A program made the position numbers and the translations under genes. This document shows positions 716 through 62,582 of a stretch of DNA of 64,000 nucleotides, one piece after another (the stretch's first letter is position 1; each line of letters opens with the position of its first letter). The stretch is from Nemertoderma westbladi. Its lineage: Eukaryota; Animalia; Xenacoelomorpha. Under the pieces are notes generated by a model, which worked only from the letters and a program-made list of their open reading frames with translations, ran no database searches and was not told where the DNA came from. The DNA lies in contig JAUCBJ010004906.1 in NCBI GenBank assembly GCA_032718475.1, forward strand, positions 37,156-101,155. The letters are read 5' to 3'.

Positions 716-771
716 CTGAAACGGAAACGGATAGGATAGAGAGAGAGCGAGATCTAGATAGGCCGATACTT

Positions 772-1392
772 TAGGTGGAACACTTACCTTCCGTTCTGTA
801 GCGTTCCCGCTACTGTATGTGGAACACTTACCTTCCGTTCTGTAGCGTTCCCGCTACTGTAGGTGGAACACTTACCTTCCGTTCTGTAGCGTTCCCGCTA
901 CTGTAGGTGGAACACTTACCTTCCGTTCTGTAGCGTTCCCGCTACTGTAGGTGGAACACTTACCTTCCGTTCTGTAGCGTTCCCGCTACTGTAGGTGGAA
1001 CACTTACCTTCCGTTCTGTAGCGTTCCCGCTACTGTAGGTGGAACACTTACCTTCCGTTCTGTAGCGTTCCCGCTACTGTAGGTGGAACACTTACCTTCC
1101 GTTCTGTAGCGTTCCCGCTACTGTAGGTGGAACACTTACCTTCCGTTCTGTAGCGTTCCCGCTACTGTAGGTGGAACACTTACCTTCCGTTCTGTAGCGT
1201 TCCCGCTACTGTAGGTGGAACACTTACCTTCCGTTCTGTAGCGTTCCCGCTACTGTAGGTGGAACACTTACCTTCCGTTCTGTAGCGTTCCCGCTACTGT
1301 AGGTGGAACACTTACCTTCCGTTCTGTAGCGTTCCCGCTACTGTAGGTGGAACACTGACCTTCCGTTCTGTAGCGTTCCCGCTACTGTAGGT
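772..1392 (-). repeat. 44-bp tandem array (14 copies) duplicating the furin exon 2 donor junction
   Basis: Minus-strand unit GTAAGTGTTCCACCTACAGTAGCGGGAACGCTACAGAACGGAAG; period 44 (cacttac at 781, 825 ... cactgac at 1353). Confidence 0.97.
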
Positions 1393-15500: not shown

Positions 15501-15802
15501 CCCTTCCACTCTATTTCCTAAAGGAATGCCTGTTCACCACCATGGGTGATCTTCCACAGTAAACCCTTCCACTCTGCTCCCTAAAGGAATGCCTGTTCAC
15601 CATCATGGGTGATCTTCCACAGTAAACCCTTCCACTCTGTTTCCCAAGTTACCTTGGTTCCCATTTATCGACCGTAGGTAAGGGTGAATGCCAGGGTTGG
15701 GCTATGCTGCAGCATTTAAAGCACTGCGTCCAAATAGTGCATGCATCTAAGGGTCGAACCAGGGCTACATGATTGTCCACCACTAGACCAAGCTGCGCTG
15801 CT
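12560..15802 (-). mobile_element. tRNA-derived SINE whose 3' body is expanded into the 63-bp array
   Basis: Minus strand: A-box TGGTCTAGTGG (about 15780-15790), B-box GGTTCGACCC (about 15751-15760), central GCATTCACCC..GGTCGATAAATGGGAACCA, then AACTTGGGAAA running directly into the array. The 3' end is approximate. Confidence 0.68.
12617..15646. repeat. 63-bp minisatellite, about 48 copies
   Basis: Unit AAGGAATGCCTGTTCACCACCATGGGTGATCTTCCACAGTAAACCCTTCCACTCTGTTTCCTA. Confidence 0.97.
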
Positions 15803-31000: not shown

Positions 31001-34000
31001 AGACTTGGACTTCTCGAATACTAATTTATTAACGAGGCAGGGAAAGAGGGAGTTGGGGGCGGGGGGGGGGGGGGGGGCAACTAGACCAAATCCAATCGCG
31101 GATAATTAATATCTCCTCTCAACGTTAACTCATCAATTAAGGGAAAGGAGCAGGTTACAGTGGCACGTTATTATAAACAAAACAATAAACAAATGTCAAT
31201 AAGCTCCTACCTATCTGCCTATCTAAGCTATCACTATACAATACCCCAGAACTCCACGGGTGAGGCGAAATGAACTGGAGTGAAATAAAGTAAAATCAAG
31301 TGAAGTGCAAATAACGTAATGTGGGAAAAAATGCACGACACATAAGATTAACGCAAAACTACAATTAAATCCATAATCAATCAAATCCTACCAAACTCAC
31401 CAAGAAAGAATTGCCATGACAACGAGGGTAGATCCGGGAGGTACAGATGTAGGAGTTCGAAACAATGCAGGATCATGGGTCGGTCGTCGACTACCGAATC
31501 GAACTGGGACTCGAGACAGGTGCACAGGGTCTTTAAGGAAGATCGTTTTATCGATTGGAGAGATAACACGGCTCGGGTGGACACCGCAGACGATTGGTCC
31601 TCCAGTAGACCAATCATAAGAGAAAACATATGGGCTAATGCTGATTGGATAACCTGCAAACAATTAGATTATAACATTAATAAGGATGAAGAAAAAGTCA
31701 ACTTAGTAAGTCAATATCTAGACTTGGAAATAAAAACCGAGAATATCAAGTCGTCTTAGAGGCTCAGTTATATTATTGTAAAGAAATTATAAATTCTCCC
31801 ATATTATATGTCCCAAATGTTTAATTAGTATTGGTTCCATAACATAGAAATATTTCTCAACAACTTTTGAGATAATTTTATGATATGGGTTTCATGGAAT
31901 CAGGGACGGACTGCCGATAGCAAGCTGATCGGGAAATTTACCCCCGAAGGCATTATAGGGAAGGAGGCCGTAACTACAATGAATGGACAATCGGCTAGAG
32001 AACTCACCAGGTTACCGGTTACGACTTTCCTCTCCACGAACCGAGCCAAGATGGCTGCCCTCTCGACCGAATCGAATCGTTTCCGCCAATCCATGTCGGA
32101 TAAACCAGCGGAAACCAGTCTCCAGAAGACGTCGGCCCCACAAGGCATCGAGACGCAATGCATAATGAGGGGGGCCAGTACTTGTACAACCTAAAATAAT
32201 AGAATACAGAGGAACCAGTACTTGTACAACCTAAAATAATAGAATACAGAGGAACCACTACTTGTACAACCTAAAATAATAGAATACAGAGGAACCAGTA
32301 CTTGTACAACCTAAAATAATAGAATACAGAGGGGCCAGTACTTGTACAACCTAAAATAATAGAATATAGAGGAACCAGTACTTGTACAACCTAAAATAAT
32401 AGAATACAGAGGAACCAGTACTTGTACAACCTAAAATAATAGAATACAGAGGAACCAGTACTTGTACAACCTAAAATAATAGAATACAGAGGAACCAGTA
32501 CTTGTACAACCTAAAATAATAGAATACAGAGGAACCAGTACTTGTACAACCTAAAATAATAGAATACAGAGGGGCCAGTACTTGTACAACCTAAAATAAT
32601 AGAATACAGAGGAACCAGTACTTGTACAACCTAAAATAATAGAATACAGAGGGGCCAGTACTTGTACAACCTAAAATAATAGAATACAGAGGAACCAGTA
32701 CTTGTACAACCTAAAATAATAGAATACAGAGGGGCCAGTACTTGTACAACCTAAAATAATAGAATACAGAGGAACCAGTACTTGTACAACCTAAAATAAT
32801 AGAATACAGAGGGGCCAGTACTTGTACAACCTAAAATAATAGAATACAGAGGAACCAGTACTTGTACAACCTAAAATAATAGAATACAGAGGAACCAGTA
32901 CTTGTACAACCTAAAATAATAGAATACAGAGGGGCCAGTACTTGTACAACCTAAAATAATAGAATACAGAGGAACCAGTACTTGTACAACCTAAAATAAT
33001 AGAATACAGAGGAACCAGTACTTGTACAACCTAAAATAATAGAATACAGAGGAGCCAGTACTTGTACAACCTAAAATAATAGAATACAGAGGAACCAGTA
33101 CTTGTACAACCTAAAATAATAGAATACAGAGGAACCAGTACTTGTACAACCTAAAATAATAGAATACAGAGGAACCAGTACTTATACAACCTAAAATAAT
33201 AGAATACAGAGGAACCAGTACTTGTACAACCTAAAATAATAGAATACAGAGGAACCAGTACTTGTACAACCTAAAATAATAGAATACAGAGGAACCAGTA
33301 CTTGTACAACCTAAAATAATAGAATACAGAGGAACCAGTACTTGTACAACCTAAAATAATAGAATACAGAGTCTGAACCAGTACTTGTACAACCTAAAAT
33401 AATAGAATACAGAGGAACCAGTACTTGTACAACCTAAAATAATAGAATACAGAGGAACCAGTACTTGTACAACCTAAAATAATAGAATACAGAGGGGCCA
33501 GTACTTGTACAACCTAAAATAATAGAATACAGAGGAACCAGTACTTGTACAACCTAAAATAATAGAATACAGAGGAACCAGTACTTGTACAACCTAAAAT
33601 AATAGAATACAGAGGAACCAGTACTTGTACAACCTAAAATAATAGAATACAGAGTCTGAACCAGTACTTGTACAACCTAAAATAATAGAATACAGAGGAA
33701 CCAGTACTTGTACAACCTAAAATAATAGAATACAGAGGAACCAGTACTTGTACAACCTAAAATAATAGAATACAGAGGGGCCAGTACTTGTACAACCTAA
33801 AATAATAGAATACAGGGGAACCAGTACTTGTACAACCTAAAATAATAGAATACAGAGGGGCCAGTACTTGTACAACCTAAACTAATAGAATACAGAGGAA
33901 CCAGTACTTGTACAACCTAAAATAATAGAATACAGAGGAACCAGTACTTGTACAACCTAAAATAATAGAATACAGAGGAACCAGTACTTGTACAACCTAA

Positions 34001-37000
34001 AATAATAGAATACAGAGGAACCAGTACTTGTACAACCTAAAATAATAGAATACAGAGGGGCCAGTACTTGTAAAACCTAAAATAATAGAATACAGAGGAA
34101 CCAGTACTTGTACAACCTAAAATAATAGAATACAGAGGGGCCAGTACTTGTACAACCTAAAATAATAGAATACAGAGGAACCAGTACTTGTACAACCTAA
34201 AATAATAGAATACAGAGGAACCAGTACTTGTACAACCTAAAATAATAGAATACAGAGGGGCCAGTACTTGTACAACCTAAAATAATAGAATACAGAGGAA
34301 CCAGTACTTGTACAACCTAAAATAATAGAATACAGAGGAACCAGTACTTGTACAACCTAAAATAATAGAATACAGAGGGGCCAGTACTTGTACAACCTAA
34401 AATAATAGAATACAGAGGAACCAGTACTTGTACAACCTAAAATAATAGAATACAGAGGAACCAGTACTTGTACAACCTAAAATAATAGAATACAGAGGAA
34501 CCAGTACTTGTACAACCTAAAATAATAGAATACAGAGGAACCAGTACTTGTACAACCTAAAACAATAGAATACAGAGGAACCAGTACTTGTACAACCTAA
34601 AATAATAGAATACAGAGGAACCAGTACTTGTACAACCTAAAATAATAGAATACAGAGGAACCACTACTTGTACAACCTAAAATAATAGAATACAGAGGGG
34701 CCAGTACTTGTACAACCTAAAATAATAGAATACAGAGGAACCAGTACTTGTACAACCTAAAATAATAGAATACAGAGGAACCAGTACTTGTACAACCTAA
34801 AATAATAGAATACAGAGGGGCCAGTACTTGTACAACCTAAAATAATAGAATACAGAGTGGCCAGTACTTGTACAACCTAAAATAATAGAATACAGAGGAA
34901 CCAGTACTTGTACAACCTAAAATAATAGAATACAGAGGAACCAGTACTTGTACAACCTAAAATAATAGAATACAGAGGAACCAGTACTTGTACAACCCAA
35001 AATAATAGAATATAGAGGAACCAGTACTTGCACAACCTAAAATAATAGAATACAAAGGAACCAGTACTTGTACAACCTAAAATAATAGAATACAGAGGAA
35101 CCAGTACTTGTACAACCTAAAATAATAGAATACAGAGGAACCAGTACTTGTACAACCTAAAATAATAGAATACAGAGGAACCAGTACTTGTACAACCTAA
35201 AATAATAGAATACAGAGTCTGAACCAGTACTTGTACAACCTAAAATAATAGAATACAGAGGAACCAGTACTTGTACAACCTAAAATAATAGAATACAGAG
35301 GAACCAGTACTTGTACAACCTAAAATAATATAATACAGAGGAACCAGTACTTGTACAACCTAAAATAATAGAATACAGAGTGGCCAGTACTTGTACAACC
35401 TACTACTAGGATCGGCATGCTGCAAATTGTACAACCTAAAATAATAGAATACAGAGGAACCAGTACTTGTACAACCTAAAATAATAGAATACAGAGGAAC
35501 CAGTACTTGTACAACCTAAAATAATAGAATACAGAGGAACCAGTACTTGTACAACCTAAAATAATAGAATACAGAGTCTGAACCAGTACTTGTACAACCT
35601 AAAATAATAGAATACAGAGTCTGAACCAGTACTTGTACAACCTAAAATAATAGAATACAGAGGAACCAGTACTTGTACAACCTAAAATAATAGAATACAG
35701 AGGAACCAGTACTTGTACAACCTAAAATAATAGAATACAGAGGAACCAGTACTTGAACAACCTAAAATAATAGAATACAGAGGAACCAGTACTTGTACAA
35801 CCTAAAATAATAGAATACAGAGGAACCAGTACTTGTACAACCTAAAATAATAGAATACAGAGGAACCAGTACTTGTACAACCTAAAATAATAGAATACAG
35901 AGGAACCAGTACTTGTACAACCTAAAATAATAGAATACAGAGGAACCAGTACTTGTACAACCTAAAATAATAGAATACAGAGGAACCAGTACTTGTACAA
36001 CCTAAAATAATAGAATACAGAGGGGCCAGTACTTGTACAACCTAAAATAATAGAATACAGAGTGGCCAGTACTTGTACAACCTAAAATAATAGAATACAG
36101 AGGAACCAGTACTTGTACAACCTAAAATAATAGAATACAGAGGAACCAGTACTTGTACAACCTAAAATAATAGAATACAGAGGAACCAGTACTTGTACAA
36201 CCCAAAATAATAGAATATAGAGGAACCAGTACTTGTACAACCTAAAATAATAGAATACAGAGGAACCAGTACTTGTACAACCTAAAATAATAGAATACAG
36301 AGGAACCAGTACTTGTACAACCTAAAATAATAGAATACAGAGGAACCAGTACTTGTACAACCTAAAATAATAGAATACAGAGTCTGAACCAGTACTTGTA
36401 CAACCTAAAATAATAGAATACAGAGGAACCAGTACTTGTACAACCTAAAATAATAGAATACAGAGGAACCAGTACTTGTACAACCTAAAATAATATAATA
36501 CAGAGGAACCAGTACTTGTACAACCTAAAATAATAGAATACAGAGTGGCCAGTACTTGTACAACCTACTACTAGGATCGGCATGCTGCAAATTGTACAAC
36601 CTAAAATAATAGAATACAGAGGAACCAGTACTTGTACAACCTAAAATAATAGAATACAGAGGAACCAGTACTTGTACAACCTAAAATAATAGAATACAGA
36701 GGAACCAGTACTTGAACAACCTAAAATAATAGAATACAGAGGAACCAGTACTTGTACAACCTAAAATAATAGAATACAGAGGAACCAGTACTTGTACAAC
36801 CTAAAATAATAGAATACAGAGGAACCAGTACTTGTACAACCTAAAATAATAGAATACAGAGGAACCAGTACTTGTACAACCTAAAATAATAGAATACAGA
36901 GTCTGAACCAGTACTTGTACAACCTAAAATAATAGAATACAGAGTCTGAACCAGTACTTGTACAACCTAAAATAATAGAATACAGAGGAACCAGTACTTG

Positions 37001-40000
37001 TACAACCTAAAATAATAGAATACAGAGGAACCAGTACTTGTACAACCTAAAATAATAGAATACAGAGGAACCAGTACTTGTACAACCTAAAATAATAGAA
37101 TACAGAGGAACCAGTACTTGTACAACCTAAAATAATAGAATACAGAGGAACCAGTACTTGTACAACCTAAAATAATAGAATACAGAGGAACCAGTACTTG
37201 TACAACCTAAAATAATAGAATACAGAGGAACCAGTACTTGTACAACCTAAAATAATAGAATACAGAGGAACCAGTACTTGTACAACCTAAAATAATACAA
37301 TACAGAGTGTCCAGTACTTGTACAACCTAAAATAATAGAATACAGAGGAACCAGTACTTGTACAACCTAAAATAATAGAATACAGAGGAACCAGTACTTG
37401 TACAACCTAAAATAATAGAATACAGAGGAACCAGTACTTGTACAACCTAAAATAATAGAATACAGAGGGGCCAGTACTTGTACAACCTAAAATAATAGAA
37501 TACAGAGGAACCAGTACTTGTACAACCTAAAATAATAGAATACAGAGGGGCCAGTACTTGTATAACCTAAAATAATAGAATACAGAGGAACCAGTACTTG
37601 TACAACCTAAAATAATAGAATACAGAGGAACCAGTACTTGTACAACCTAAAATAATAGAATACAGAGGGGCCAGTACTTGTACAACCTAAAATAATAGAA
37701 TACAGAGGAACCAGTACTTGTACAACCTAAAATAATAGAATACAGAGGGGCCAGTACTTGTACAACCTAAAATAATAGAATACAGAGGAACCAGTACTTG
37801 TACAACCTAAAATAATAGAATACAGAGGAACCAGTACTTGTACAACCTAAAATAATAGAATACAGAGGAACCAGTACTTGTACAACCTAAAATAATAGAA
37901 TACAGAGGAACCAGTACTTGAACAACCTAAAATAATAGAATACAGAGGAACCAGTACTTATACAACCTAAAATAATAGAATACAGAGGAACCAGTACTTG
38001 TACAACCTAAAATAATAGAATACAGAGGAACCAGTACTTGTACAACCTAAAATAATAGAATACAGAGGAACCAGTACTTGTACAACCTAAAATAATAGAA
38101 TACAGAGGAACCAGTACTTGTACAACCTAAAATAATAGAATACAGAGGAACCAGTACTTGTACAACCTAAAATAATAGAATACAGAGGAACCAGTACTTG
38201 TACAACCTAAAATAATAGAATACAGAGGAACCAGTACTTGTACAACCTAAAATAATAGAATACAGAGGGGCCAGTACTTGTACAACCTAAAATAATAGAA
38301 TACAGAGTGGCCAGTACTTGTACAACCTAAAATAATAGAATACAGAGGAACCAGTACTTGTACAACCTAAAATAATAGAATACAGAGGAACCAGTACTTG
38401 TACAACCTAAAATAATAGAATACAGAGGAACCAGTACTTGTACAACCCAAAATAATAGAATATAGAGGAACCAGTACTTGTACAACCTAAAATAATAGAA
38501 TACAGAGGAACCAGTACTTGTACAACCTAAAATAATACAATACAGAGGAACCAGTACTTGTACAACCTAAAATAATAGAATACAGAGGAACCAGTACTTG
38601 TACAACCTAAAATAATAGAATACAGAGGAACCAGTACTTGTACAACCTAAAATAATAGAATACAGAGGAACCAGTACTTGTACAACCTAAAATAATAGAA
38701 TACAGAGGAACCAGTACTTGTACAACCTAAAATAATAGAATACAGAGGAACCAGTACTTGTACAACCTAAAATAATAGAATACAGAGGAACCAGTACTTG
38801 TACAACCTAAAATAATAGAATACAGAGGAACCAGTACTTGTACAACCTAAAATAATAGAATACAGAGGAACCAGTACTTGTACAACCTAAAATAATAGAA
38901 TACAGAGGAACCAGTACTTGTACAACCTAAAATAATAGAATACAGAGGAACCAGTACTTGTACAACCTAAAATAATAGAATACAGAGGAACCAGTACTTG
39001 TACAACCTAAAATAATAGAATACAGAGGAACCAGTACTTGTACAACCTAAAATAATAGAATACAGAGGAACCAGTACTTGTACAACCTAAAATAATAGAA
39101 TACAGAGGAACCAGTACTTGTACAACCTAAAATAATAGAATACAGAGGAACCAGTACTTGTACAACCTAAAATAATAGAATACAGAGGAACCAGTACTTG
39201 TACAACCTAAAATAATAGAATACAGAGGAACCAGTACTTGTACAACCTAAAATAATACAATACAGAGTGTCCAGTACTTGTACAACCTAAAATAATAGAA
39301 TACAGAGGAACCAGTACTTGTACAACCTAAAATAATAGAATACAGAGTCTGAACCAGTACTTGTACAACCTAAAATAATAGAATACAGAGTCTGAACCAG
39401 TACTTGTACAACCTAAAATAATAGAATACAGAGGAACCAGTACTTGTACAACCTAAAATAATAGAATACAGAGGAACCAGTACTTGTACAACCTAAAATA
39501 ATAGAATACAGAGGAACCAGTACTTGAACAACCTAAAATAATAGAATACAGAGGAACCAGTACTTGTACAACCTAAAATAATAGAATACAGAGGAACCAG
39601 TACTTGTACAACCTAAAATAATAGAATACAGAGGAACCAGTACTTGTACAACCTAAAATAATAGAATACAGAGGAACCAGTACTTGTACAACCTAAAATA
39701 ATAGAATACAGAGGAACCAGTACTTGTACAACCTAAAATAATAGAATACAGAGGAACCAGTACTTGTACAACCTAAAATAATAGAATACAGAGGGGCCAG
39801 TACTTGTACAACCTAAAATAATAGAATACAGAGTGGCCAGTACTTGTACAACCTAAAATAATAGAATACAGAGGAACCAGTACTTGTACAACCTAAAATA
39901 ATAGAATACAGAGGAACCAGTACTTGTACAACCTAAAATAATAGAATACAGAGGAACCAGTACTTGTACAACCCAAAATAATAGAATATAGAGGAACCAG

Positions 40001-43000
40001 TACTTGTACAACCTAAAATAATAGAATACAGAGGAACCAGTACTTGTACAACCTAAAATAATAGAATACAGAGGAACCAGTACTTGTACAACCTAAAATA
40101 ATAGAATACAGAGGAACCAGTACTTGTACAACCTAAAATAATAGAATACAGAGTCTGAACCAGTACTTGTACAACCTAAAATAATAGAATACAGAGGAAC
40201 CAGTACTTGTACAACCTAAAATAATAGAATACAGAGGAACCAGTACTTGTACAACCTAAAATAATATAATACAGAGGAACCAGTACTTGTACAACCTAAA
40301 ATAATAGAATACAGAGTGGCCAGTACTTGTACAACCTACTACTAGGATCGGCATGCTGCAAATTGTACAACCTAAAATAATAGAATACAGAGGAACCAGT
40401 ACTTGTACAACCTAAAATAATAGAATACAGAGGAACCAGTACTTGTACAACCTAAAATAATAGAATACAGAGGAACCAGTACTTGAACAACCTAAAATAA
40501 TAGAATACAGAGGAACCAGTACTTGTACAACCTAAAATAATAGAATACAGAGGAACCAGTACTTGTACAACCTAAAATAATAGAATACAGAGGAACCAGT
40601 ACTTGTACAACCTAAAATAATAGAATACAGAGGAACCAGTACTTGTACAACCTAAAATAATAGAATACAGAGTCTGAACCAGTACTTGTACAACCTAAAA
40701 TAATAGAATACAGAGTCTGAACCAGTACTTGTACAACCTAAAATAATAGAATACAGAGGAACCAGTACTTGTACAACCTAAAATAATAGAATACAGAGGA
40801 ACCAGTACTTGTACAACCTAAAATAATAGAATACAGAGGAACCAGTACTTGTACAACCTAAAATAATAGAATACAGAGGAACCAGTACTTGTACAACCTA
40901 AAATAATAGAATACAGAGGAACCAGTACTTGTACAACCTAAAATAATAGAATACAGAGGAACCAGTACTTGTACAACCTAAAATAATAGAATACAGAGGA
41001 ACCAGTACTTGTACAACCTAAAATAATAGAATACAGAGGAACCAGTACTTGTACAACCTAAAATAATACAATACAGAGTGTCCAGTACTTGTACAACCTA
41101 AAATAATAGAATACAGAGGAACCAGTACTTGTACAACCTAAAATAATAGAATACAGAGGAACCAGTACTTGTACAACCTAAAATAATAGAATACAGAGGA
41201 ACCAGTACTTGTACAACCTAAAATAATAGAATACAGAGGGGCCAGTACTTGTACAACCTAAAATAATAGAATACAGAGGAACCAGTACTTGTACAACCTA
41301 AAATAATAGAATACAGAGGGGCCAGTACTTGTATAACCTAAAATAATAGAATACAGAGGAACCAGTACTTGTACAACCTAAAATAATAGAATACAGAGGA
41401 ACCAGTACTTGTACAACCTAAAATAATAGAATACAGAGGGGCCAGTACTTGTACAACCTAAAATAATAGAATACAGAGGAACCAGTACTTGTACAACCTA
41501 AAATAATAGAATACAGAGGGGCCAGTACTTGTACAACCTAAAATAATAGAATACAGAGGAACCAGTACTTGTACAACCTAAAATAATAGAATACAGAGGA
41601 ACCAGTACTTGTACAACCTAAAATAATAGAATACAGAGGAACCAGTACTTGTACAACCTAAAATAATAGAATACAGAGGAACCAGTACTTGAACAACCTA
41701 AAATAATAGAATACAGAGGAACCAGTACTTATACAACCTAAAATAATAGAATACAGAGGAACCAGTACTTGTACAACCTAAAATAATAGAATACAGAGGA
41801 ACCAGTACTTGTACAACCTAAAATAATAGAATACAGAGGAACCAGTACTTGTACAACCTAAAATAATAGAATACAGAGGAACCAGTACTTGTACAACCTA
41901 AAATAATAGAATACAGAGGAACCAGTACTTGTACAACCTAAAATAATAGAATACAGAGGAACCAGTACTTGTACAACCTAAAATAATAGAATACAGAGGA
42001 ACCAGTACTTGTACAACCTAAAATAATAGAATACAGAGGGGCCAGTACTTGTACAACCTAAAATAATAGAATACAGAGTGGCCAGTACTTGTACAACCTA
42101 AAATAATAGAATACAGAGGAACCAGTACTTGTACAACCTAAAATAATAGAATACAGAGGAACCAGTACTTGTACAACCTAAAATAATAGAATACAGAGGA
42201 ACCAGTACTTGTACAACCTAAAATAATAGAATATAGAGGAACCAGTACTTGTACAACCTAAAATAATAGAATACAGAGGAACCAGTACTTGTACAACCTA
42301 AAATAATAGAATACAGAGGAACCAGTACTTGTACAACCTAAAATAATAGAATACAGAGGAACCAGTACTTGTACAACCTAAAATAATAGAATACAGAGGA
42401 ACCAGTACTTGTACAACCTAAAATAATAGAATACAGAGGAACCAGTACTTGTACAACCTAAAATAATAGAATACAGAGGAACCAGTACTTGTACAACCTA
42501 AAATAATAGAATACAGAGGAACCAGTACTTGTACAACCTAAAATAATAGAATACAGAGGAACCAGTACTTGTACAACCTAAAATAATAGAATACAGAGGA
42601 ACCAGTACTTGTACAACCTAAAATAATAGAATACAGAGGAACCAGTACTTGTACAACCTAAAATAATAGAATACAGAGGAACCAGTACTTGTACAACCTA
42701 AAATAATAGAATACAGAGGAACCAGTACTTGTACAACCTAAAATAATAGAATACAGAGGAACCAGTACTTGTACAACCTAAAATAATAGAATACAGAGGA
42801 ACCAGTACTTGTACAACCTAAAATAATAGAATACAGAGGAACCAGTACTTGTACAACCTAAAATAATAGAATACAGAGGAACCAGTACTTGTACAACCTA
42901 AAATAATAGAATACAGAGGAACCAGTACTTGTACAACCTAAAATAATAGAATACAGAGGAACCAGTACTTGTACAACCTAAAATAATAGAATACAGAGGA

Positions 43001-46000
43001 ACCAGTACTTGTACAACCTAAAATAATAGAATACAGAGGAACCAGTACTTGTACAACCTAAAATAATAGAATACAGAGGAACCAGTACTTGTACAACCTA
43101 AAATAATAGAATACAGAGTGTCCAGTACTTGTACAACCTAAAATAATAGAATACAGAGGAACCAGTACTTGTACAACCTAAAATAATAGAATACAGAGGA
43201 ACCAGTACTTGTACAACCTAAAATAATAGAATACAGAGGAAACAGTACTTGTACAACCTAAAATAATAGAATACAGAGGGGCCAGTACTTGTACAACCTA
43301 AAATAATAGAATACAGAGGAACCAGTACTTGTACAACCTAAAATAATAGAATACAGAGGGGCCAGTACTTGTACAACCTAAAATAATAGAATACAGAGGA
43401 ACCAGTACTTGTACAACCTAAAATAATAGAATACAGAGGAACCAGTACTTGTACAACCTAAAATAATAGAATACAGAGGAACCAGTACTTGTACAACCTA
43501 AAATAATAGAATACAGAGGGGCCAGTACTTGTACAACCTAAAATAATAGAATACAGAGGAACCAGTACTTGTACAACCTAAAATAATAGAATACAGAGGG
43601 GCCAGTACTTGTACAACCTAAAATAATAGAATACAGAGGAACCAGTACTTGTACAACCTAAAATAATAGAATACAGAGGGGCCAGTACTTGTACAACCTA
43701 AAATAATAGAATACAGAGGAACCAGTACTTGTACAACCTAAAATAATAGAATACAGAGGAACCAGTACTTGTACAACCTAAAATAATAGAATACAGAGGA
43801 ACCAGTACTTGTACAACCTAAAATAATAGAATACAGAGGAATCAGTACTTGAACAACCTAAAATAATAGAATACAGAGGAACCAGTACTTATACAACCTA
43901 AAATAATAGAATACAGAGGAACCAGTACTTGTACAACCTAAAATAATAGAATACAGAGGAACCAGTACTTGTACAACCTAAAATAATAGAATACAGAGGA
44001 ACCAGTACTTGTACAACCTAAAATAATAGAATACAGAGGAACCAGTACTTGTACAACCTAAAATAATAGAATACAGAGGGGCCAGTACTTGTATAACCTA
44101 AAATAATAGAATACAGAGGAACCAGTACTTGTACAACCTAAAATAATAGAATACAGAGGAACCAGTACTTGTACAACCTAAAATAATAGAATACAGAGGG
44201 GCCAGTACTTGTACAACCTAAAATAATAGAATACAGAGGAACCAGTACTTGTACAACCTAAAATAATAGAATACAGAGGGGCCAGTACTTGTACAACCTA
44301 AAATAATAGAATACAGAGGAACCAGTACTTGTACAACCTAAAATAATAGAATACAGAGGAACCAGTACTTGTACAACCTAAAATAATAGAATACAGAGGA
44401 ACCAGTACTTGTACAACCTAAAATAATAGAATACAGAGGAATCAGTACTTGAACAACCTAAAATAATAGAATACAGAGGAACCAGTACTTGTACAACCTA
44501 AAATAATAGAATACAGAGGAACCAGTACTTGTACAACCTAAAATAATAGAATACAGAGGAACCAGTACTTGTACAACCCAAAATAATAGAATATAGAGGA
44601 ACCAGTACTTGTACAACCTAAAATAATAGAATACAGAGGAACCAGTACTTGTACAACCTAAAATAATAGAATATAGAGTGGCCAGTACTTGTACAACCCA
44701 AAATAATAGAATGCAGAGGAACCAGTACTTGTACAACCTAAAATAATAGAATACAGAGGAACCAGTACTTGTACAACCTAAAATAATAGAATACAGAGTC
44801 TGAACCAGTACTTGCACAACCTAAAATAATAGAATACAGAGGAACCAGTACTTGTACAACCTAAAATAATAGAATACAGAGGAACAAGTACTTGTACAAC
44901 CTAAAATAATAGAATACAGAGGAACCAGTACTTGTACAACCTAAAATAATAGAATATAGAGTGGCCAGTACTTGTACAACCCAAAATAATAGAATGCAGA
45001 GGAACCAGTACTTGTACAACCTAAAATAATAGAATACAGAGGAACCAGTACTTGTACAACCTAAAATAATAGAATACAGAGTCTGAACCAGTACTTGTAC
45101 AACCTAAAATAATAGAATATAGAGGAACCAGTACTTGTACAACCTAAAATAATAGAATACAGAGGAACCAGTACTTGTACAACCTAAAATAATAGAATAC
45201 AGAGTCTGAACCAGTACTTGTACAACCTAAAATAATAGAATATAGAGGAACCAGTACTTGTACAACCTAAAATAATAGAATACAGAGGAACAAGTACTTG
45301 TACAACCTAAAATAATAGAATACAGAGGAACCAGTACTTGTACAACCTAAAATAATAGAATATAGAGTGGCCAGTACTTGTACAACCCAAAATAATAGAA
45401 TGCAGAGGAACCAGTACTTGTACAACCTAAAATAATAGAATACAGAGGAACCAGTACTTGTCCAACCTAAAATAATAGAATACAGAGGAACCAGTACTTG
45501 TACAACCTAAAATAATAGAATATAGAGTGGCCAGTACTTGTACAACCTAAAATAATAGAATACAGAGGAACCAGTACTTGTACAACCTAAAATAATAGAA
45601 TACAGAGGAACCAGTACTTGTACAACCTAAAATAATAGAATATAGAGTGGCCAGTACTTGTACAACCTAAAATAATAGAATACAGAGGAACCAGTACTTG
45701 TACAACCTAAAATAATAGAATACAGAGGAACCAGTACTTGTACAACCTAAAATAATAGAATATAGAGTGGCCAGTACTTGTACAACCTAAAATAATAGAA
45801 TACAGAGTAACCAGTACTTGTACAACCCAAAATAATAGAATGCAGAGGAACCAGTACTTGTACAACCTAAAATAATAGAATACAGAGGAACCAGTACTTG
45901 TACAACCTAAAATAATAGAATACAGAGGAACCAGTACTTGTACAACCTAAAATAATAGAATACAGAGGAACCAGTACTTGCACAACCTAAAATAATAGAA

Positions 46001-49000
46001 TACAGAGGAACCAGTACTTGTACAACCTAAAATAATAGAATACAGAGTCTGAACCAGTACTTGTACAACCTAAAATAATAGAATATAGAGGAACCAGTAC
46101 TTGTACAACCTAAAATAATAGAATACAGAGGAACCAGTACTTGCACAACCTAAAATAATAGAATACAGAGGAAACAGTACTTGTACAACCTAAAATAATA
46201 GAATACAGAGTCTGAACCAGTACTTGTACAACCTAAAATAATAGAATACAGAGGAACCAGTACTTGTACAACCTAAAATAATAGAATACAGAGGAACCAG
46301 TACTTGCACAACCTAAAATAATAGAATACAGAGGAACCAGTACTTGTACAACCTAAAATAATAGAATACAGAGGAACCAGTACTTGTACAACCTAAAATA
46401 ATAGAATATAGAGTGGCCAGTACTTGTACAACCTAAAATAATAGAATATAGAGTGGCCAGTACTTGTACAACCTAAAATAATAGAATACAGAGGAACCAC
46501 TACTTGCACAACCTAAAATAATAGAATACAGAGGAACCAGTACTTGTACAACCTAAAATAATAGAATACAGAGGAACCAGTACTTGCACAACCTAAAATA
46601 ATAGAATACAGAGGAACCAGTACTTGTACAACCTAAAATAATAGAATACAGAGGAACCAGTACTTGTACAACCTAAAATTATAAAATACAGAGGAACCAG
46701 TACTTGCACAACCTAAAATAATAGAATACAGAGGAACCAGTACTTGTACAACCTAAAATAATAGAATACAGAGGAACCAGTACTTGTACAACCTAAAATA
46801 ATAGAATACAGAGGAACCAGTACTTGCACAACCTAAAATAATAGAATACAGAGGAACCAGTACTTGTACAACCTAAAATAATAGAATACAGAGTCTGAAC
46901 CAGTACTTATACAACCTAAAATAATAGAATACAGAGGAACCAGTACTTGTACAACCTAAAATAATAGAATACAGAGGAACCAGTACTTGTACAACCTAAA
47001 ATAAAAGAATACAGAGGAACCAGTACTTGCACAACCTAAAATAATAGAATACAGAGGAACCAGTACTTGCACAACCTAAAATAATAGAATACAGAGGAAC
47101 CAGTACTTGTACAACCTAAAATAATAGAATACAGAGGAACCAGTACTTGCACAACCTAAAATAATAGAATACAGAGGAACCAGTACTTGTACAACCTAAA
47201 ATAATAGAATACAGAGGAACCAGTACTTGCACAACCTAAAATAATAGAATACAAAGGAACCAGTACTTGTACAACCTAAAATAATAGAATACAGAGGAAC
47301 CAGTACTTGTACAACCTAAAATAATAGAATACAGAGGAACCAGTACTTGTACAACCTAAAATAATAGAATACAGAGGAACCAGTACTTGTACAACCTAAA
47401 ATAATAGAATACAGAGGAACCAGTACTTGCACAACCTAAAATAATAGAATACAGAGGAACCAGTACTTGCACAACCAAAACAATAGAATATAGAGTGGCC
47501 AGTACTTGTACAACCTAAAATAATAGAATACAGAGGAACCAGTACTTGTACAACCTAAAATAATAGAATATAGAGGAACCAGTACTTGTACAACTTAAAA
47601 TAATATAATACAGAGGAACCAGTACTTGCACAACCTAAAATAATAGAATATAGAGTGGCCAGTACTTGTACAACCTAAAATAATAGAATACAGAGGAACC
47701 AGTACTTGTAAAACCTAAAATAATAGAATACAGAGGAACCAGTACTTGCACAACCTAAAATAATAGAATATAGAGTGGCCAGTACTTGTACAACCTAAAA
47801 TAATAGAATACAGAGGAACCAGTACTTGTACAACCTAAAATAATAGAATACAGAGGAACCAGTACTTGTACAACCTAAAATAATAGAATATAGAGTGGCC
47901 AGTACTTGTACAACCTAAAATAATAGAATACAGAGTGGCCAGTACTTGTACAACCTAAAATAATAGAATACAGAGGAACCAGTACTTGCACAACCTAAAA
48001 TAATAGAATATAGAGTGGCCAGTACTTGTACAACCTAAAATAATAGAATACAGAGGAACCAGTACTTGTACAACCTAAAATAATAGAATACAGAGGAACC
48101 AGTACTTGTACAACCTAAAATAATAGAATACAGAGGAACCAGTACTTGTTCAACCTAAAATAATAGAATACAGAGGAACCAGTACTTGTACAACCTAAAA
48201 TAATAGAATACAGAGGAACCAGTACTTGTACAACCTAAAATAATAGAATACAGAGGGGCCAGTACTTGAACAACCTAAAATAATAGAATACAGAGGAACC
48301 AGTACTTGCACAACCTAAAATAATAGAATACAGAGGAACCAGTACTTGTACAACCTAAAATAATAGAATACAGAGGAACCAGTACTTGCACAACCTAAAA
48401 TAATAGAATACAGAGGAACCAGTACTTGTACAACCTAAAATAATAGAATACAGAGGAACCAGTACTTGTACAATCTAAAATAATAGAATACAGAGGAACC
48501 AGTACTTGTACAACCTAAAATAATAGAATACAGAGGAACCAGTACTTGTACAACCTAAAATAATAGAATACAGAGGAACCAGTACTTGCACAACCTAAAA
48601 TAATAGAATACAGAGGAACCAGTACTTGTACAACCTAAAATAATAGAATAGAGAGGAACCAGTACTTGCACAACCTAAAATAATAGAATACAGAGGAACC
48701 AGTACTTGTACAACCTAAAATAATAGAATACAGAGGAACCAGTACTTGTACAATCTAAAATAATAGAATACAGAGGAACCAGTACTTGTACAACCTAAAA
48801 TAATAGAATACAGAGGAACCAGTACTTGTACAACCTAAAATAATAGAATACAGAGGAACCAGTACTTGCACAACCTAAAATAATAGAATACAGAGGAACC
48901 AGTACTTGTACAACCTAAAATAATAGAATACAGAGGAACCAGTACTTGTACAACCTAAAATAATAGAATACAGAGGAACCAGTACTTGTACAACCTAAAA

Positions 49001-52000
49001 TAATAGAATACAGAGGAACCAGTACTTGCACAACCTAAAATAATAGAATACAGAGGAACCAGTACTTGTACAACCTAAAATAATAGAATACAGAGGAACC
49101 AGTACTTGCACAACCTAAAATAATAGAATACAGAGGAACCAGTACTTGTACAACCTAAAATAATAGAATACAGAGGAACCAGTACTTGCACAACCTAAAA
49201 TAATAGAATACAGAGGAACCAGTACTTGTACAACCTAAAATAATAGAATACAGAGGAACCAGTACTTGTACAACCTAAAATAATAGAATACAGAGGGGCC
49301 AGTACTTGTACAACCTAAAATAATAGAATACAGAGGAACCAGTACTTGTACAACCTCAAATAATAGAATACAGAGGAACCAGTACTTGTACAACCTAAAA
49401 TAATAGAATACAGAGGAACCAGTACTTGCACAACCTAAAATAATAGAATACAGAGTCTGAACCAGTACTTATACAACCTAAAATAATAGAATATAGAGGA
49501 ACCAGTACTTGTACAACCTAAAATAATAGAATACAGAGGAACCAGTACTTGCACAACCTAAAATAATAGAATACAGAGGAACCAGTACTTGTACAACCTA
49601 AAATAATAGAATACAGAGGAACCAGTACTTGTACAACCTAAAATAATAGAATACAGAGGAACCAGTACTTGTACAACCTAAAATAATAGAATACAGAGGA
49701 ACCAGTACTTGCACAACCTAAAATAATAGAATACAGAGGAACCAGTACTTGTACAACCTAAAATAATAGAATACAGAGGAACCAGTACTTGCACAACCTA
49801 AAATAATAGAATGCAGAGGAACCAGTACTTGTACAACCTAAAATAATAGAATACAGAGGAACCAGTACTTGTACAACCTAAAATAATAGAATACAGAGGA
49901 ACCAGTACTTGTACAACCTAAAATAATAGAATACAGAGGAACCAGTACTTGTACAACCTAAAATAATAGAATACAGAGGAACCAGTACTTGTACAACCTA
50001 AAATAATAGAATACAGAGGAACCAGTACTTGTACAACCTAAAATAATAGAATACAGAGGAACCAGTACTTGTACAACCTAAAATAATAGAATACAGAGGA
50101 ACCAGTACTTGTACAACCTAAAATAATAGAATACAGAGGAACCAGTACTTGCACAACCTAAAATAATAGAATACAGAGGAACCAGTACTTGTACAACCTA
50201 AAATAATAGAATACAGAGGAACCAGTACTTGCACAACCTAAAATAATAGAATACAGAGGAACCAGTACTTGTACAACCTAAAATAATAGAATACAGAGGA
50301 ACCAGTACTTGCACAACCTAAAATAATAGAATACAGAGGAACCAGTACTTGTACAACCTAAAATAATAGAATACAGAGGAACCAGTACTTGTACAACCTA
50401 AAATAATAGAATACAGAGGAGCCAGTACTTGTACAACCTAAAATAATAGAATACAGAGGAACCAGTACTTGTACAACCTAAAATAATAGAATACAGAGGA
50501 ACCAGTACTTGTACAACCTAAAATAATAGAATACAGAGGAACCAGTACTTGCACAACCTAAAATAATAGAATACAGAGTCTGAACCAGTACTTATACAAC
50601 CTAAAATAATAGAATATAGAGGAACCAGTACTTGTACAACCTAAAATAATAGAATACAGAGGAACCAGTACTTGCACAACCTAAAATAATAGAATATAGA
50701 GTGGCCAGTACTTGTACAACCTAAAATAATAGAATACAGAGGAACCAGTACTTGTACAACCTAAAATAATAGAATACAGAGGAACCAGTACTTGCACAAC
50801 CTAAAATAATAGAATACAGAGGAACCAGTACTTGTACAACCTAAAATAATAGAATACAGAGGAACCAGTACTTGCACAACCTAAAATAATAGAATACAGA
50901 GGAACCAGTACTTGTACAACCTAAAATAATAGAATACAGAGGAACCAGTACTTGTACAACCTAAAATAATAGAATACAGAGGAACCAGTACTTGTACAAC
51001 CTAAAATAATAGAATACAGAGGAACCAGTACTTGCACAACCTAAAATAATAGAATGCAGAGGAACCAGTACTTGTACAACCTAAAATAATAGAATACAGA
51101 GGAACCAGTACTTGCACAACCTAAAATAATAGAATACAGAGGAACCAGTACTTGTACAACCTAAAAAAATAGAATACAGAGGAACCAGTACTTGCACAAC
51201 CTAAAATAATAGAATACAGAGGAACCAGTACTTGTACAACCTAAAATAATAGAATACAGAGGAACCAGTACTTGTACAATCTAAAATAATAGAATACAGA
51301 GGAACCAGTACTTGTACAACCCAAAATAATAGAATACAGAGGAACCAGTACTTGTACAACCTAAAATAATAGAATACAGAGGAACCAGTACTTGCACAAC
51401 CTAAAATAATAGAATACAGAGGAACCAGTACTTGTACAACCTAAAATAATAGAATACAGAGGAACCAGTACTTGCACAACCTAAAATAATAGAATACAGA
51501 GGAACCAGTACTTGTACAACCTAAAATAATAGAATACAGAGTCTGAACCAGTACTTATACAACCTAAAATAATAGAATACAGAGGAACCAGTACTTGTAC
51601 AACCTAAAATAATAGAATACAGAGGAACCAGTACTTGTACAACCTAAAATAATAGAATACAGAGGAACCAGTACTTGCACAACCTAAAATAATAGAATAC
51701 AGAGGAACCAGTACTTGTACAACCTAAAAAAATAGAATACAGAGGAACCAGTACTTGCACAACCTAAAATAATAGAATACAGAGGAACCAGTACTTGTAC
51801 AACCTAAAATAATAGAATACAGAGGAACCAGTACTTGCACAACCTAAAATAATAGAATACAGAGGAACCAGTACTTGTACAACCTAAAATAATAGAATAC
51901 AGAGGAACCAGTACTTGTACAACCTAAAATAATAGAATACAGAGGGGCCAGTACTTGTACAACCTAAAATAATAGAATACAGAGGAACCAGTACTTGTAC

Positions 52001-55000
52001 AACCTAAAATAATAGAATACAGAGGAACCAGTACTTGTACAACCTAAAATAATAGAATACAGAGGAACCAGTACTTGTACAACCTAAAATAATAGAATAC
52101 AGAGGAACCAGTACTTGTACAACCTAAAATAATAGAATACAGAGGAACCAGTACTTGCACAACCTAAAATAATAGAATACAGAGTCTGAACCAGTACTTA
52201 TACAACCTAAAATAATAGAATATAGAGGAACCAGTACTTGTACAACCTAAAATAATAGAATACAGAGGAACCAGTACTTGCACAACCTAAAATAATAGAA
52301 TATAGAGTGGCCAGTACTTGTACAACCTAAAATAATAGAATACAGAGGAACCAGTACTTGTACAACCTAAAATAATAGAATACAGAGGAACCAGTACTTG
52401 TACAACCTAAAATAATATAATACAGAGGAACCAGTACTTGTACAACCTAAAATAACAGAATACAGAGGAACCAGTACTTGTACAACCTAAAATAATAGAA
52501 TACAGAGGAACCAGTACTTGTATAACCTAAAATAATAGAATACAGAGGAACCAGTACTTGTACAACCTAAAATAATAGAATACAGAGGAACCAGTACTTG
52601 TACAACCTAAAATAATAGAATACAGAGGAACCAGTACTTGTACAACCTAAAATAATAGAATACAGAGGAACCAGTACTTGTACAACCTAAAATAATAGAA
52701 TACAGAGGAACCAGTACTTGTATAACCTAAAATAATAGAATACAGAGGAACCAGTACTTGTACAACCTAAAATAATAGAATACAGAGGAACCAGTACTTG
52801 TACAACCTAAAATAATGGAATACAGAGGAACCAGTACTTGTACAACCTAAAATAATATAATACAGAGGAACCAGTACTTGTACAACCTAAAATAACAGAA
52901 TACAGAGGAACCAGTACTTGTACAACCTAAAATAATAGAATACAGAGGAACCAGTACTTGTATAACCTAAAATAATAGAATACAGAGGAACCAGTACTTG
53001 TACAACCTAAAATAATAGAATACAGAGGAACCAGTACTTGTACAACCTAAAATAATAGAATACAGAGGGGCCAGTACTTGTACAACCTAAAATAATAGAA
53101 TACAGAGGAACCAGTACTTGCACAACCTAAAATAATAGAATACAGAGGGGCCAGTACTTGTACAACCTAAAATAATAGAATACAGAGGAACCAGTACTTG
53201 TATAACCTAAAATAATAGAATACAGAGGGGCCAGTACTTGAACAACCTAAAATAATAGAATGCAGAGGAACCAGTACTTGTACAACCTAAAATAATAGAA
53301 TACAGAGGAACCAGTACTTGTACAACCTAAAATAATAGAATACAGAGGAACCAGTACTTGTACAACCTAAAATAATAGAATACAGAGGGGCCAGTACTTG
53401 CACAACCTAAAATAATAGAATACAGAGGAACCAGTACTTGTACAACCTAAAATAATAGAATACAGAGGAACCAGTACTTGTACAACCTAAAATAATAGAA
53501 TACAGAGGAACCAGTACTTGAACAACCTAAAATAATAGAATACAGAGGAACCAGTACTTGTACAACCTAAAATAATAGAATACAGAGGAACCAGTACTTG
53601 TACAACCTAAAATAATAGAATACAGAGGGGCCAGTACTTGCACAACCTAAAATAATAGAATACAGAGGAACCAGTACTTGTACAACCTAAAATAATAGAA
53701 TACAGAGGAACCAGTACTTGTACAACCTAAAATAATAGAATACAGAGGAACCAGTACTTGTACAACCTAAAATAATAGAATACAGAGGGGCCAGTACTTG
53801 CACAACCTAAAATAATAGAATACAGAGGAACCAGTACTTGTACAACCTAAAATAATAGAATACAGAGGAACCAGTACTTGTACAACCTAAAATAATAGAA
53901 TACAGAGGGGCCAGTACTTGAACAACCTAAAATAATAGAATGCAGAGGAACCAGTACTTGTACAACCTAAAATAATAGAATACAGAGGAACCAGTACTTG
54001 TACAACCTAAAATAATAGAATACAGAGGAACCAGTACTTGTACAACCTAAAATAATAGAATACAGAGGGGCCAGTACTTGCACAACCTAAAATAATAGAA
54101 TACAGAGGAACCAGTACTTGTACAACCTAAAATAATAGAATACAGAGGAACCAGTACTTGTACAACCTAAAATAATAGAATACAGAGGAACCAGTACTTG
54201 CACAACCTAAAATAATAGAATACAGAGGAACCAGTACTTGTACAACCTAAAATAATAGAATATAGAGTGGCCAGTACTTGTACAACCTAAAATAATAGAA
54301 TACAGAGGAACCAGTACTTGTACAACCTAAAATAATAGAATACAGAGGAACCAGTACTTGTACAACCTAAAATAATAGAATACAGAGGAACCAGTACTTG
54401 TACAACCTAAAATAATAGAATACAGAGGAACCAGTACTTGTACAACCTAAAATAATAGAATACAGAGGAACCAGTACTTGTACAACCTAAAATAATAGAA
54501 TACAGAGGAACCAGTACTTGCACAACCTAAAATAATAGAATACAGAGGAACCAGTACTTGCACAACCTAAAATAATAGAATATAGAGTGGCCAGTACTTG
54601 TACAACCTAAAATAATATAATACAGAGGAACCAGTACTTGTACAACCTAAAATAACAGAATACAGAGGAACCAGTACTTGTACAACCTAAAATAATAGAA
54701 TACAGAGGAACCAGTACTTGTATAACCTAAAATAATAGAATACAGAGGAACCAGTACTTGTACAACCTAAAATAATAGAATACAGAGGAACCAGTACTTG
54801 TATAACCTAAAATAATAGAATACAGAGGAACCAGTACTTGTACAACCTAAAATAATAGAATACAGAGGAACCAGTACTTGTACAACCTAAAATAATAGAA
54901 TACAGAGGGGCCAGTACTTGAACAACCTAAAATAATAGAATGCAGAGGAACCAGTACTTGTACAACCTAAAATAATAGAATACAGAGGAACCAGTACTTG

Positions 55001-58000
55001 TACAACCTAAAATAATAGAATACAGAGGAACCAGTACTTGTACAACCTAAAATAATAGAATACAGAGGAACCAGTACTTGTACAACCCAAAATAATAGAA
55101 TATAGAGGAACCAGTACTTGCACAACCTAAAATAATAGAATACAGAGGGGCCAGTACTTGAACAACCTAAAATAATAGAATGCAGAGGAACCAGTACTTG
55201 TACAACCTAAAATAATAGAATACAGAGGAACCAGTACTTGTACAACCTAAAATAATAGAATACAGAGGAACCAGTACTTGTACAACCTAAAATAATAGAA
55301 TACAGAGGAACCAGTACTTGTACAACCTAAAATAATAGAATACAGAGGAACCAGTACTTGTACAACCTAAAATAATAGAATACAGAGGAACCAGTACTTG
55401 TACAACCTAAAATAATAGAATACAGAGGAACCAGTACTTGTACAACCTAAAATAATAGAATACAGAGGAACCAGTACTTGTACAACCTAAAATAATAGAA
55501 TACAGAGGGGCCAGTACTTGAACAACCTAAAATAATAGAATGCAGAGGAACCAGTACTTGTACAACCTAAAATAATAGAATACAGAGGAACCAGTACTTG
55601 TACAACCTAAAATAATAGAATACAGAGGAACCAGTACTTGCACAACCTAAAATAATAGAATACAGAGGAACCAGTACTTGTACAACCTAAAATAATAGAA
55701 TACAGAGGAACCAGTACTTGTACAACCTAAAATAATAGAATACAGAGGAACCAGTACTTGTACAACCTAAAATAATAGAATACAGAGGGGCCAGTACTTG
55801 AACAACCTAAAATAATAGAATGCAGAGGAACCAGTACTTGTACAACCTAAAATAATAGAATACAGAGGAACCAGTACTTGTACAACCTAAAATAATAGAA
55901 TACAGAGGAACCAGTACTTGCACAACCTAAAATAATAGAATACAGAGGAACCAGTACTTGTACAACCTAAATAATAGAATATAGAGTGGCCAGTACTTGT
56001 AATACCTAAAATAATAGAATACAGAGGAACCAGTACTTGTACAACCTAAAATAATAGAATACAGAGGAACCAGTACTTGTACAACCTAAAATAATAGAAT
56101 ACAGAGGAACCAGTACTTGTACAACCTAAAATAATAGAATACAGAGGAACCAGTACTTGCACAACCTAAAATAATAGAATACAGAGGAACCAGTACTTGT
56201 ACAACCTAAAATAATAGAATACAGAGGAACCAGTACTTGCACAACCTAAAATAATAGAATACAGAGGAACCAGTACTTGTACAACCTAAAATAATAGAAT
56301 ACAGAGGAACCAGTACTTGTACAACCTAAAATAATAGAATACAGAGGAACCAGTACTTGCACAACCTAAAATAATAGAATACAGAGGAACCAGTACTTGT
56401 ACAACCTAAAATAATAGAATGCAGAGGAACCAGTACTTGTACAACCTAAAATAATAGAATACAGAGGAACCAGTACTTGTACAACCTAAAATAATAGAAT
56501 ACAGAGGAACCAGTACTTGCACAACCTAAAATAATAGAATACAGAGGAACCAGTACTTGTACAACCTAAAATAATAGAATGCAGAGGAACCAGTACTTGT
56601 ACAACCTAAAATAATAGAATACAGAGGAACCAGTACTTGTACAACCTAAAATAATAGAATACAGAGGAACCAGTACTTACCTGGCATTGATTAGGTTCTA
56701 TTAACTCCCAGAACTGGCTGTTCAGTAAATTCTCTTGGAGGTATATACAGAATCCCAGATAGTTTTTGGCCGAATGTTCTAGAACACCAGCTTTTAGACA
56801 AACAAGTCTGATAATCCGAATGAAGTGATATCGAACCAACGGGGTGTGGTATCTGTGGATATGGGAGGAAATTGTTCATTTAATTAATTTAAATTTATTT
56901 ATTATAACAAATTTAAACAAACAAAATAACAATATTAAATGATGGATATCTATTCGATACTCTTACTTTAGTAGGTAGAGTGGTCAATCACTTTGGTTCT
57001 ACCTAGGATGTCCGGGGTTCGATCCCGTGCCGAACCAGTTACAATTCCGTAACTGATCCGTCAACCCAGCGATATGGGGACTTGGTTTCTGTTGGCGGAG
57101 TACAGAATAAGGTAAAAGGTAAAAGGAACCAAAAGTGCAGCTGATATTCTGACATTATTTTACTTTATTATCTGAATAATAAAGATAATATTTCACTGAC
57201 TTGGCCAATAAGTGAAGCAAGGCGTACAGAAGTCGGTTAGTGTTGGGGAAGTCGGTTCTATCGAATTTAAATCTCCCGCGACTTGTCTCCCAGTAGGTGT
57301 CCTTACCAGACGGGGGGTGGCAGACCACCTCAACGTTGTCGTCAAGGTTGTCTATGACGAGCGCTCTGAAAATAAAATAAACTCGAAACCATGGAAACAG
57401 TAGGAATTGTTTTGCGATCACTCGGCTAGATGGTATTTTGAGGAACTGGTTTCATAAACTGTTTCTTTATTACATTTATTGTTTTTTCTTCAAAATCTAT
57501 TTTATTTCATGACCGAAGAGAGAAACGATAGACGCGGTAACGAAAACGCAGTAATATAAATATTATAATAATAATATTATATAAAATTTTCAAATACTTA
57601 TTTCAGTAATTTTCTTTGTGAACAAAAGTAATTATTTATTACATGGGGAAAAATTAGCTCGATAAATTCTATTTACCGAGCGCCAGCGAAGTTAATAAAG
57701 TGTCGATAGAATATTGAAAAAAATGCTACGTTTTTCCCATGTAATACGTAATTATTATATTCTTAAATTGGTACTTTTTTTGCTGCTCAAATCTTTAATA
57801 AAACATAGAGCGATATAGTGTTACAAAATAAATTGAGCTGCAGTATTTTACTATATTGCTTCCATAGTTACAGCGTTTCATATTATTGTACTCTGCAACT
57901 CCGGATTCTGCCTTACTCAATGTTAAATGATTTAGTGTCCTCGAATATTTATAAGGTAAGTTCTAAGCAACTAAAGTTACAATAACTTTTCAGTGTGTGG

Positions 58001-62127: not shown

Positions 62128-62582
62128 CTAGAAAGAGACATAATTTTTTTATTTTTATTTACTCAGGATGTGTACCATTACTATCGATTGACTGAACTAT
62201 GCACTTCTACATAGTTACCAATTTAGTTTCCGGAGCAACGGAAATTTGAATAATAATTTCCCCATTTTTACTAGAATTTTGGCTGGTACAAAATGGGAAG
62301 CTTATTAACTCTACGTCTCTATAAAACGGGGGTGGATGTAACGCAGCCCATCAAATTTGTCGACCCCAAAAACCTTTATTCCCAAAAATACCCCTCCATA
62401 TGATGAACTATCGTGATTTTTAAACTAAAACAAACCGAGATAGAGCAATTAATGTGTAACACGCCAGTGTAAATATCAGGGTTGCTACACTCTTTCAGTT
62501 TCAATTTTCCCTGACTTTTTGAAAAATTATCTGACTTCAGATACACAAATTATTGGCAGCTTTATCTTATTCGTTCGCTTTA

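Follow-up and report, generated by a model that had tools for sequence, protein, structure and literature searches.

The repeat-filled intron of UNC79

The DNA analyzed here is a 64,000-nt stretch of the Nemertoderma westbladi assembly GCA_032718475.1 (contig JAUCBJ010004906.1, positions 37,156 to 101,155 of the forward strand), hereafter the window, whose own numbering is used throughout. Its minus strand carries part of UNC79, which is a conserved neuronal ion-channel gene, and one UNC79 intron is filled with tandem copies of a unit that includes the intron's own 3´ splice site. Minisatellites that run across an intron-exon boundary in this way are known as mirages from the amphioxus genes Adh3, BflGb6, BflGb9, troponin C and PGBD5 (PMC3087553; PMC3902484). 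Coordinates are collected in Table 1.

A preliminary description of the window, made from its letters alone, had placed a 24.5-kb intron of about 610 copies, with essentially no unique sequence, between 56680 and 32191. These coordinates are right (24,490 nt on the minus strand), and so is the count. Tandem Repeats Finder (TRF) gives a period of 40, 611.2 copies, 96% matches and a score of 45273, far beyond chance, and segmentation resolves the intron into a first piece of 35 nt followed by 610 units, each about 40 nt long (582 of 40 nt, 23 of 43, three of 36 and two of 39). Only 2 of the 24,490 intron bases fall outside the TRF array, and no unique intron sequence remains.

Each unit joins the first 16-20 nt of the downstream exon to the last 20-24 nt of the intron, that is, to the pyrimidine tract and TAG. 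Bases 1-16 of the unit and of the exon are identical, and the C at exon position 17 is also present in 77 of the 582 40-nt units. The statement that the intron is made only of copies of its 3´ splice site therefore holds in that the array fills the intron, but not in that the unit also carries the first 16 nt of the exon. Because the exon begins with GT, an AG/GT at every unit boundary arises automatically. The earlier wording that every unit reads from GT to AG goes too far, since the inner boundaries are AG/GT in 594 of 610 cases (593 TAG/GT and one GAG/GT) and 16 are not, three of them reading TAG/AT and 13 having lost the AG.

The units are close to uniform, with a mean identity of 98.4% to the last unit among those of 40 nt and a GC content of 32.5%. 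There are nevertheless 51 distinct unit sequences, the commonest in 367 copies and 21 of them found once; the longest run of the pure commonest unit is 21, and a G at position 6 is restricted, with one exception, to the first 305 units. A block of 73 units (about 2.9 kb, including 22 variant units) recurs exactly 94 units later, where 20 shuffles gave repeats of at most 10 units. Three identical 36-nt units start at 40371, 36600 and 35435 on the minus strand; their 3´ part differs, lacks a pyrimidine tract, is unrelated to the repeat and does not recur anywhere in the window, and of all GTs in the array the most donor-like lies in them.

The reading frame across the intron

Four exons match 7w7g_A, the UNC79 chain of a PDB entry, with residue numbers that continue free of gaps; the match of the exon upstream of the array (56852-56681) is weak on its own (E 9). 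Eight inferred exons with GT-AG ends, from 57365 to 15960, form a single open frame of 458 aa. An exhaustive search yielded 119 UNC79 homologues (a word-based search with the 84-aa exon gave no score to any of 29 candidates), to which the predicted protein is 27-43% identical. In a tree of 27 rows the protein sits on a long branch and groups (100/97) with three chordate and two echinoderm rows. Judged by its open frame and the homologue alignments, the gene looks intact in this part, with no decay. Its introns without arrays measure 335, 348, 354 and 925 nt.

The frame depends on which acceptor is used. When one, two, three, four, five or six units are retained, a stop follows in all six cases, whereas with zero units retained there is no stop through the next exon; the frame-breaking effect of retained units, noted earlier, is thus borne out, and coding micro-exons made of single units are ruled out. 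Among the homologue alignments, 33 cross the exon junction by 25 residues per side, and 31 of these 33 are ungapped within 15 residues. Because the junction is ungapped in homologues, only the last acceptor would give the conserved protein, and here the preliminary description was correct; the exon matches to UNC79 point the same way.

Choice of the acceptor

Removal of the intron had been proposed to follow one of two routes, exon definition from the donor at 32007 or stepwise recursive splicing. The first, with its GC-rich exon and good donor, is the best reading of the locus; the second, which keeps a low probability, fails the sequence tests for a strong regenerated donor and for donors downstream of the inner acceptors. 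We consider it probable, from the arrangement of splice sites in the DNA, that the 611-copy mirage intron is removed in one step to its last acceptor by exon definition. The inner acceptors would be skipped for want of a usable donor downstream of them at exon distance. The last acceptor would be favored because it is followed by the 183-nt exon, which is GC-rich (55%) and has a good donor (GTGAGT at 32007), and because it is the copy nearest to that donor. Leakage to the last few or the first few copies would produce a stop-bearing RNA that is degraded.

Donors are scarce inside the array. Donor strength was taken as a simple count of U1 matches at intronic positions +3 to +6, not from a trained splice-site model. 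Among the 42 GT contexts of the array, one (in 3 copies) has three of four matches, four (in 7 copies) have two of four, and the rest have none or one. Because only 10 GT copies reach two or three matches, inner acceptors have almost no cross-exon partner. It had also been argued that a first-AG scanning model would pick the acceptor 35 nt from the donor; as put, this argument is weak, since it is the branch point, not the donor, from which acceptor scanning starts. In a minigene test on 5´ sites, where identical donors competed, the one nearest across the exon won (PMC9225289).

Several points weigh against direct removal. The same study reports only a reduced preference for the upstream site when 3´ sites compete under exon definition (PMC9225289). 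Splicing to any of the last three or four acceptors would yield an exon of ordinary size (183, 223, 263 nt), so that exon definition alone would not pick out the last. The predicted accessibility of the acceptor is the same for the last copy and for 13 inner copies. The donor upstream of the array matches the full U1 consensus (9/9), and acceptors lie 75-235 nt from this perfect donor, inside the intron-definition range of under 250 nt; at the 1,500 nt/min used in PMC6110457, about 16 min would pass before the real exon is transcribed. Intron-defined splicing to these acceptors is a real risk, and if the perfect donor joined one of them early, only recursion could rescue the transcript. RNA structure as the selector of the acceptor was rejected on the equal predicted accessibility together with the predicted folding of the last four units and the start of the exon, which is not unusual (z -0.55).

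Rescue of this kind would form part of a stepwise route, to which we give a low probability: the strong donor would join an early unit during transcription and regenerate a weak donor, removal would proceed in several or many steps, and the ratchet would end when the donor at 32007 outcompetes the donor regenerated at the last unit. In its fullest and likewise doubtful form, a runaway repeat would have overwritten the UNC79 intron, and the spliceosome would ratchet along it on the weak regenerated donor, so that recursion would have arisen free from a minisatellite; if so, the length of the array would set the speed and yield of UNC79 mRNA. Several points fit such a course. The acceptor lies directly before GT at 594 of the 610 inner boundaries, the regenerated site keeps the perfect exonic CAG and hence five contiguous U1 matches, and the acceptors 75-235 nt from the perfect donor exist long before the real exon is transcribed. 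Under the stronger-donor rule described for flies (PMC8605326), the ratchet would halt precisely at the real exon, and since both routes end in one and the same mRNA (PMC6110457), steady-state RNA is no evidence against recursion.

Against this stands the strength of the regenerated donor, which has none of four U1 matches at +3 to +6 in any common unit and at most one of four at any unit start, whereas all nine inferred real donors of the window have two to four. The juxtaposition of AG and GT comes free with the unit, the exon starting with GT. It shows no extra conservation within the array either, in a comparison of low power on recently copied units: TAG/GT carries 4 alleles over 5 positions (0.8), against 34 over 40 (0.85) for the whole unit among the 582 40-nt units. 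Ratchet points in Drosophila resemble the array in that acceptor and GT are juxtaposed inside a long intron, but they need a cryptic exon with a donor of its own, the recursive-splicing (RS) exon, and generally carry a stronger donor (PMC8605326); they are twice as conserved as control AGGT sites and bound segments of 9.1 kb on average (PMC6110457). The array of UNC79, in contrast, has weak donors 40 nt apart that show no extra conservation among its units, and a donor for an RS exon is almost never present, given only 10 GT copies with two or three intronic matches. Judged by two features, the strength of the regenerated donor and the RS-exon donor, the UNC79 array is not a ratchet-point array, and recursion is not supported as the main route. 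A ratchet maintained by selection was rejected on the weak regenerated donor, the near absence of RS-exon donors and, in the low-power comparison, the lack of a conservation signal at AG/GT.

Less probable again is that the allele is poorly spliced or dead, through use of a wrong copy, in-frame skipping of the 183-nt exon or stalling, and that the animal depends on another allele, whose array is shorter, or makes do with little UNC79. The 611 near-identical acceptors invite such errors. Minisatellite length differs between haplotypes in amphioxus (PMC3087553), and in human ABCA7, where an intron 18 variable number tandem repeat (VNTR) is built of donor-bearing units, longer alleles raise the exon-skipped isoform (PMC5954066). 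Eight exons that share an open frame, have GT-AG ends and are 27-43% identical to homologues are by contrast as expected under selection, although an expansion that is recent and confined to one haplotype would not yet show any decay.

We rate lowest the reading in which the array is real but was inflated or distorted in assembly, with a true copy number well below 611. A 24.5-kb array at 98% unit identity is hard to assemble, and the exact recurrence of the 73-unit block is what such an error might leave. The 51 distinct units, 21 of them single, the longest pure run of only 21 and the regional gradients of variants speak against it, and without the duplicated block there would still be over 500 units.

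Whichever route is taken, the intron is a natural experiment on splice-site choice, in which about 600 acceptors have 24 kb of upstream context and 16 downstream bases in common, and in which only the last acceptor, transcribed minutes after the first, would give protein. Since there is no other intron sequence for a branch point or silencer, the site selector must lie in the exons. If splicing is direct, the locus would bound how far exon definition can overrule a co-transcriptional first-come choice; if it is stepwise, the locus would represent a new origin of recursive splicing. Variants among the units make many inner junctions mappable.

Relation to known systems

By three features of its sequence, the UNC79 array is a member of the described mirage class: the unit spans the exon-intron boundary, AG/GT is present in most but not all units, and the repeats turn over as tandem repeats do. 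The amphioxus mirages share the boundary-spanning units and the AG/GT in most but not all of them, come in acceptor and donor types, and may occur several to a gene. They are reported not to disturb normal splicing (PMC3087553; PMC3902484). Normal splicing was seen there by RT-PCR, whereas the UNC79 array is known here from sequence. The amphioxus clusters, as described, hold 2-7 units (BflGb6 3-6, PGBD5 2-7), against 611 here, and unlike them the UNC79 array leaves no unique intron sequence. Against the amphioxus-hybrid row the UNC79 protein shows 33% identity, which places the array in another lineage than the amphioxus mirages. That the class is already known limits the surprise; what is new here is the scale, 611 copies, and the absence of unique intron sequence. 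A literature search, with most subscription journals outside its coverage, did not turn up any intron described as consisting entirely of acceptor copies.

The ABCA7 VNTR is closer in size, with up to about 427 repeats (10.7 kb), and leaks an isoform that retains one unit, with a frameshift (PMC5954066); copies of a donor-bearing unit are thus tolerated there in such numbers. A splice-site-bearing unit in hundreds of copies, and a frameshift when one unit is retained, are thus common to both loci. They differ in the side of the intron affected. In ABCA7 the unit starts at the donor GT and the real copy comes first and is transcribed first, whereas in UNC79 the array is on the acceptor side and the real acceptor is transcribed last, 24.5 kb after the first decoy.

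Origin and growth of the array

The exact 73-unit repeat shows growth by block duplication, though an assembly error could mimic it, and unequal crossing-over is the likely means by which the array grew. Its seed would have been a short duplication across the acceptor, with block duplications enlarging it afterwards. The start of the intron may record a further event. Its 35-nt first piece equals the next unit minus bases 3-7 and matches exon bases +8 to +23 at 13 of 16 positions; 9 of the 12 positions beyond the shared AAGT match, with a chance probability of about 7e-4. The simplest reading of this piece is a deletion that removed an older unique interior and fused the old donor to a unit at the four shared bases AAGT. 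An ancestral 35-nt intron with lucky microhomology would give the same sequence, so that the deletion is indistinguishable from it by sequence, which counts against our reading; we place the ancestral intron lower, given the match to 13 of 16 exon bases and to the next unit minus bases 3-7. The piece may also be explained if a unit lost 5 nt and so became a donor.

The model of Rogers, in which an intron is gained by tandem duplication of AG/GT (cited in PMC3087553 and PMC2812944), resembles the locus in that the intron consists wholly of tandem units and runs from the GT of the first copy to the AG of the last. In that model the 3´ part of the unit copies the end of the upstream exon, whereas in UNC79 an AT-rich pyrimidine tract stands there, which does not resemble that exon end when the two are compared by eye. 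An origin by duplication of exon sequence alone was rejected on this comparison, and the 3´ part of the unit looks intron-derived.

Among 21 metagenome loci, all three intron-bearing ones that cover the site (L011, L014 and L021) lack an intron there, and this absence weakens the case for an ancient intron position. In the other direction, three protein models (P0229, P0285 and P0222, two of them nematode) break exactly at the residue of the intron. The UNC79 intron positions of the three metagenome loci differ from those of the window gene over the compared region, a difference that points to heavy turnover of introns in one lineage or the other. As for the array itself, it is probably a by-product that the gene tolerates rather than a device.

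Other features of the window

Table 1. Positions of the UNC79 exons, tandem arrays and other features in the window.
Feature	Position	Strand	Details
UNC79 mirage intron	56680-32191	minus	24,490 nt, GTAAGT at 56680 to TTTTAG at 32191
First intron piece, 35 nt	56646..56680	minus	donor running straight into repeat unit
610 tandem units, about 40 nt each	32191..56645	minus	TRF and segmentation
UNC79 exon upstream of the array, 172 nt	56681..56852	minus	residues 3-53 match 7w7g_A 915-965, E 9
UNC79 exon downstream of the array, 183 nt	32008..32190	minus	residues 5-60 match 7w7g_A 974-1029, E 4.9e-12
Next UNC79 exon, 253 nt	31401..31653	minus	matches 7w7g_A 1033-1114, E 2.7e-19
UNC79 exon	19522-19372	minus	matches 7w7g_A 1116-1164
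Second acceptor mirage, next UNC79 intron, 145 copies of a 37-38-nt unit	19523..29427	minus	TRF and exon comparison
3.8-kb element	19715-23473		34-nt terminal inverted repeats ending in TA; splits the second acceptor mirage
UNC79 donor mirage, 27-nt unit (exon end and donor)	17657..18906	minus	44 GTAAG copies
Furin-like gene donor mirage, 44-nt unit	763..1392	minus	14 donor copies
Fifth array, 57-nt unit, 48 copies	59024-61775	minus
HMCES/SRAP-family gene, one uninterrupted frame	4990-5943	minus	flanked by UNC79 and the furin-like gene
Short frame with a duplicated reverse-transcriptase-like motif	10584-10910	minus	84-nt tandem repeat at 10667-10838

Four mirages lie in two genes of the window, and they are a habit of this genome. 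In the second acceptor mirage of UNC79 the exon-derived part has drifted in distal units, most of which retain TAG. About 1 kb at its junction with the inserted 3.8-kb element is itself duplicated (region 24501-23900). The element contains a 42-nt minisatellite (20278-22028), and related sequence with the same minisatellite lies in the opposite orientation at about 62570-64000. The UNC79 intron after 18890 begins with the 44 donor copies.

The mirage intron of the furin-like gene consists of its 14 donor copies and a short tail, so that 93% of it is array. Its authentic first donor reads GTCAGT and the 13 later copies are full-consensus GTAAGT; a weaker site must therefore beat 13 stronger ones. 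The best match of the furin-like protein is 56% identical and those of the HMCES/SRAP-family protein about 35-36%; no close relative was found for either, nor did similarity searches find a look-alike of the stretch.

The fifth array stops two bases short of the AG of the exon at 59021, and its units copy the pyrimidine tract without the AG. The array systems at 6528-7637, 12616-15644, 20278-22028 and 63414-64000 showed no link to splice sites on inspection. Tandem arrays, counted as eleven stretches, cover 64% of the window (1-64000). The short frame at 10584-10910 is presumably a LINE remnant.

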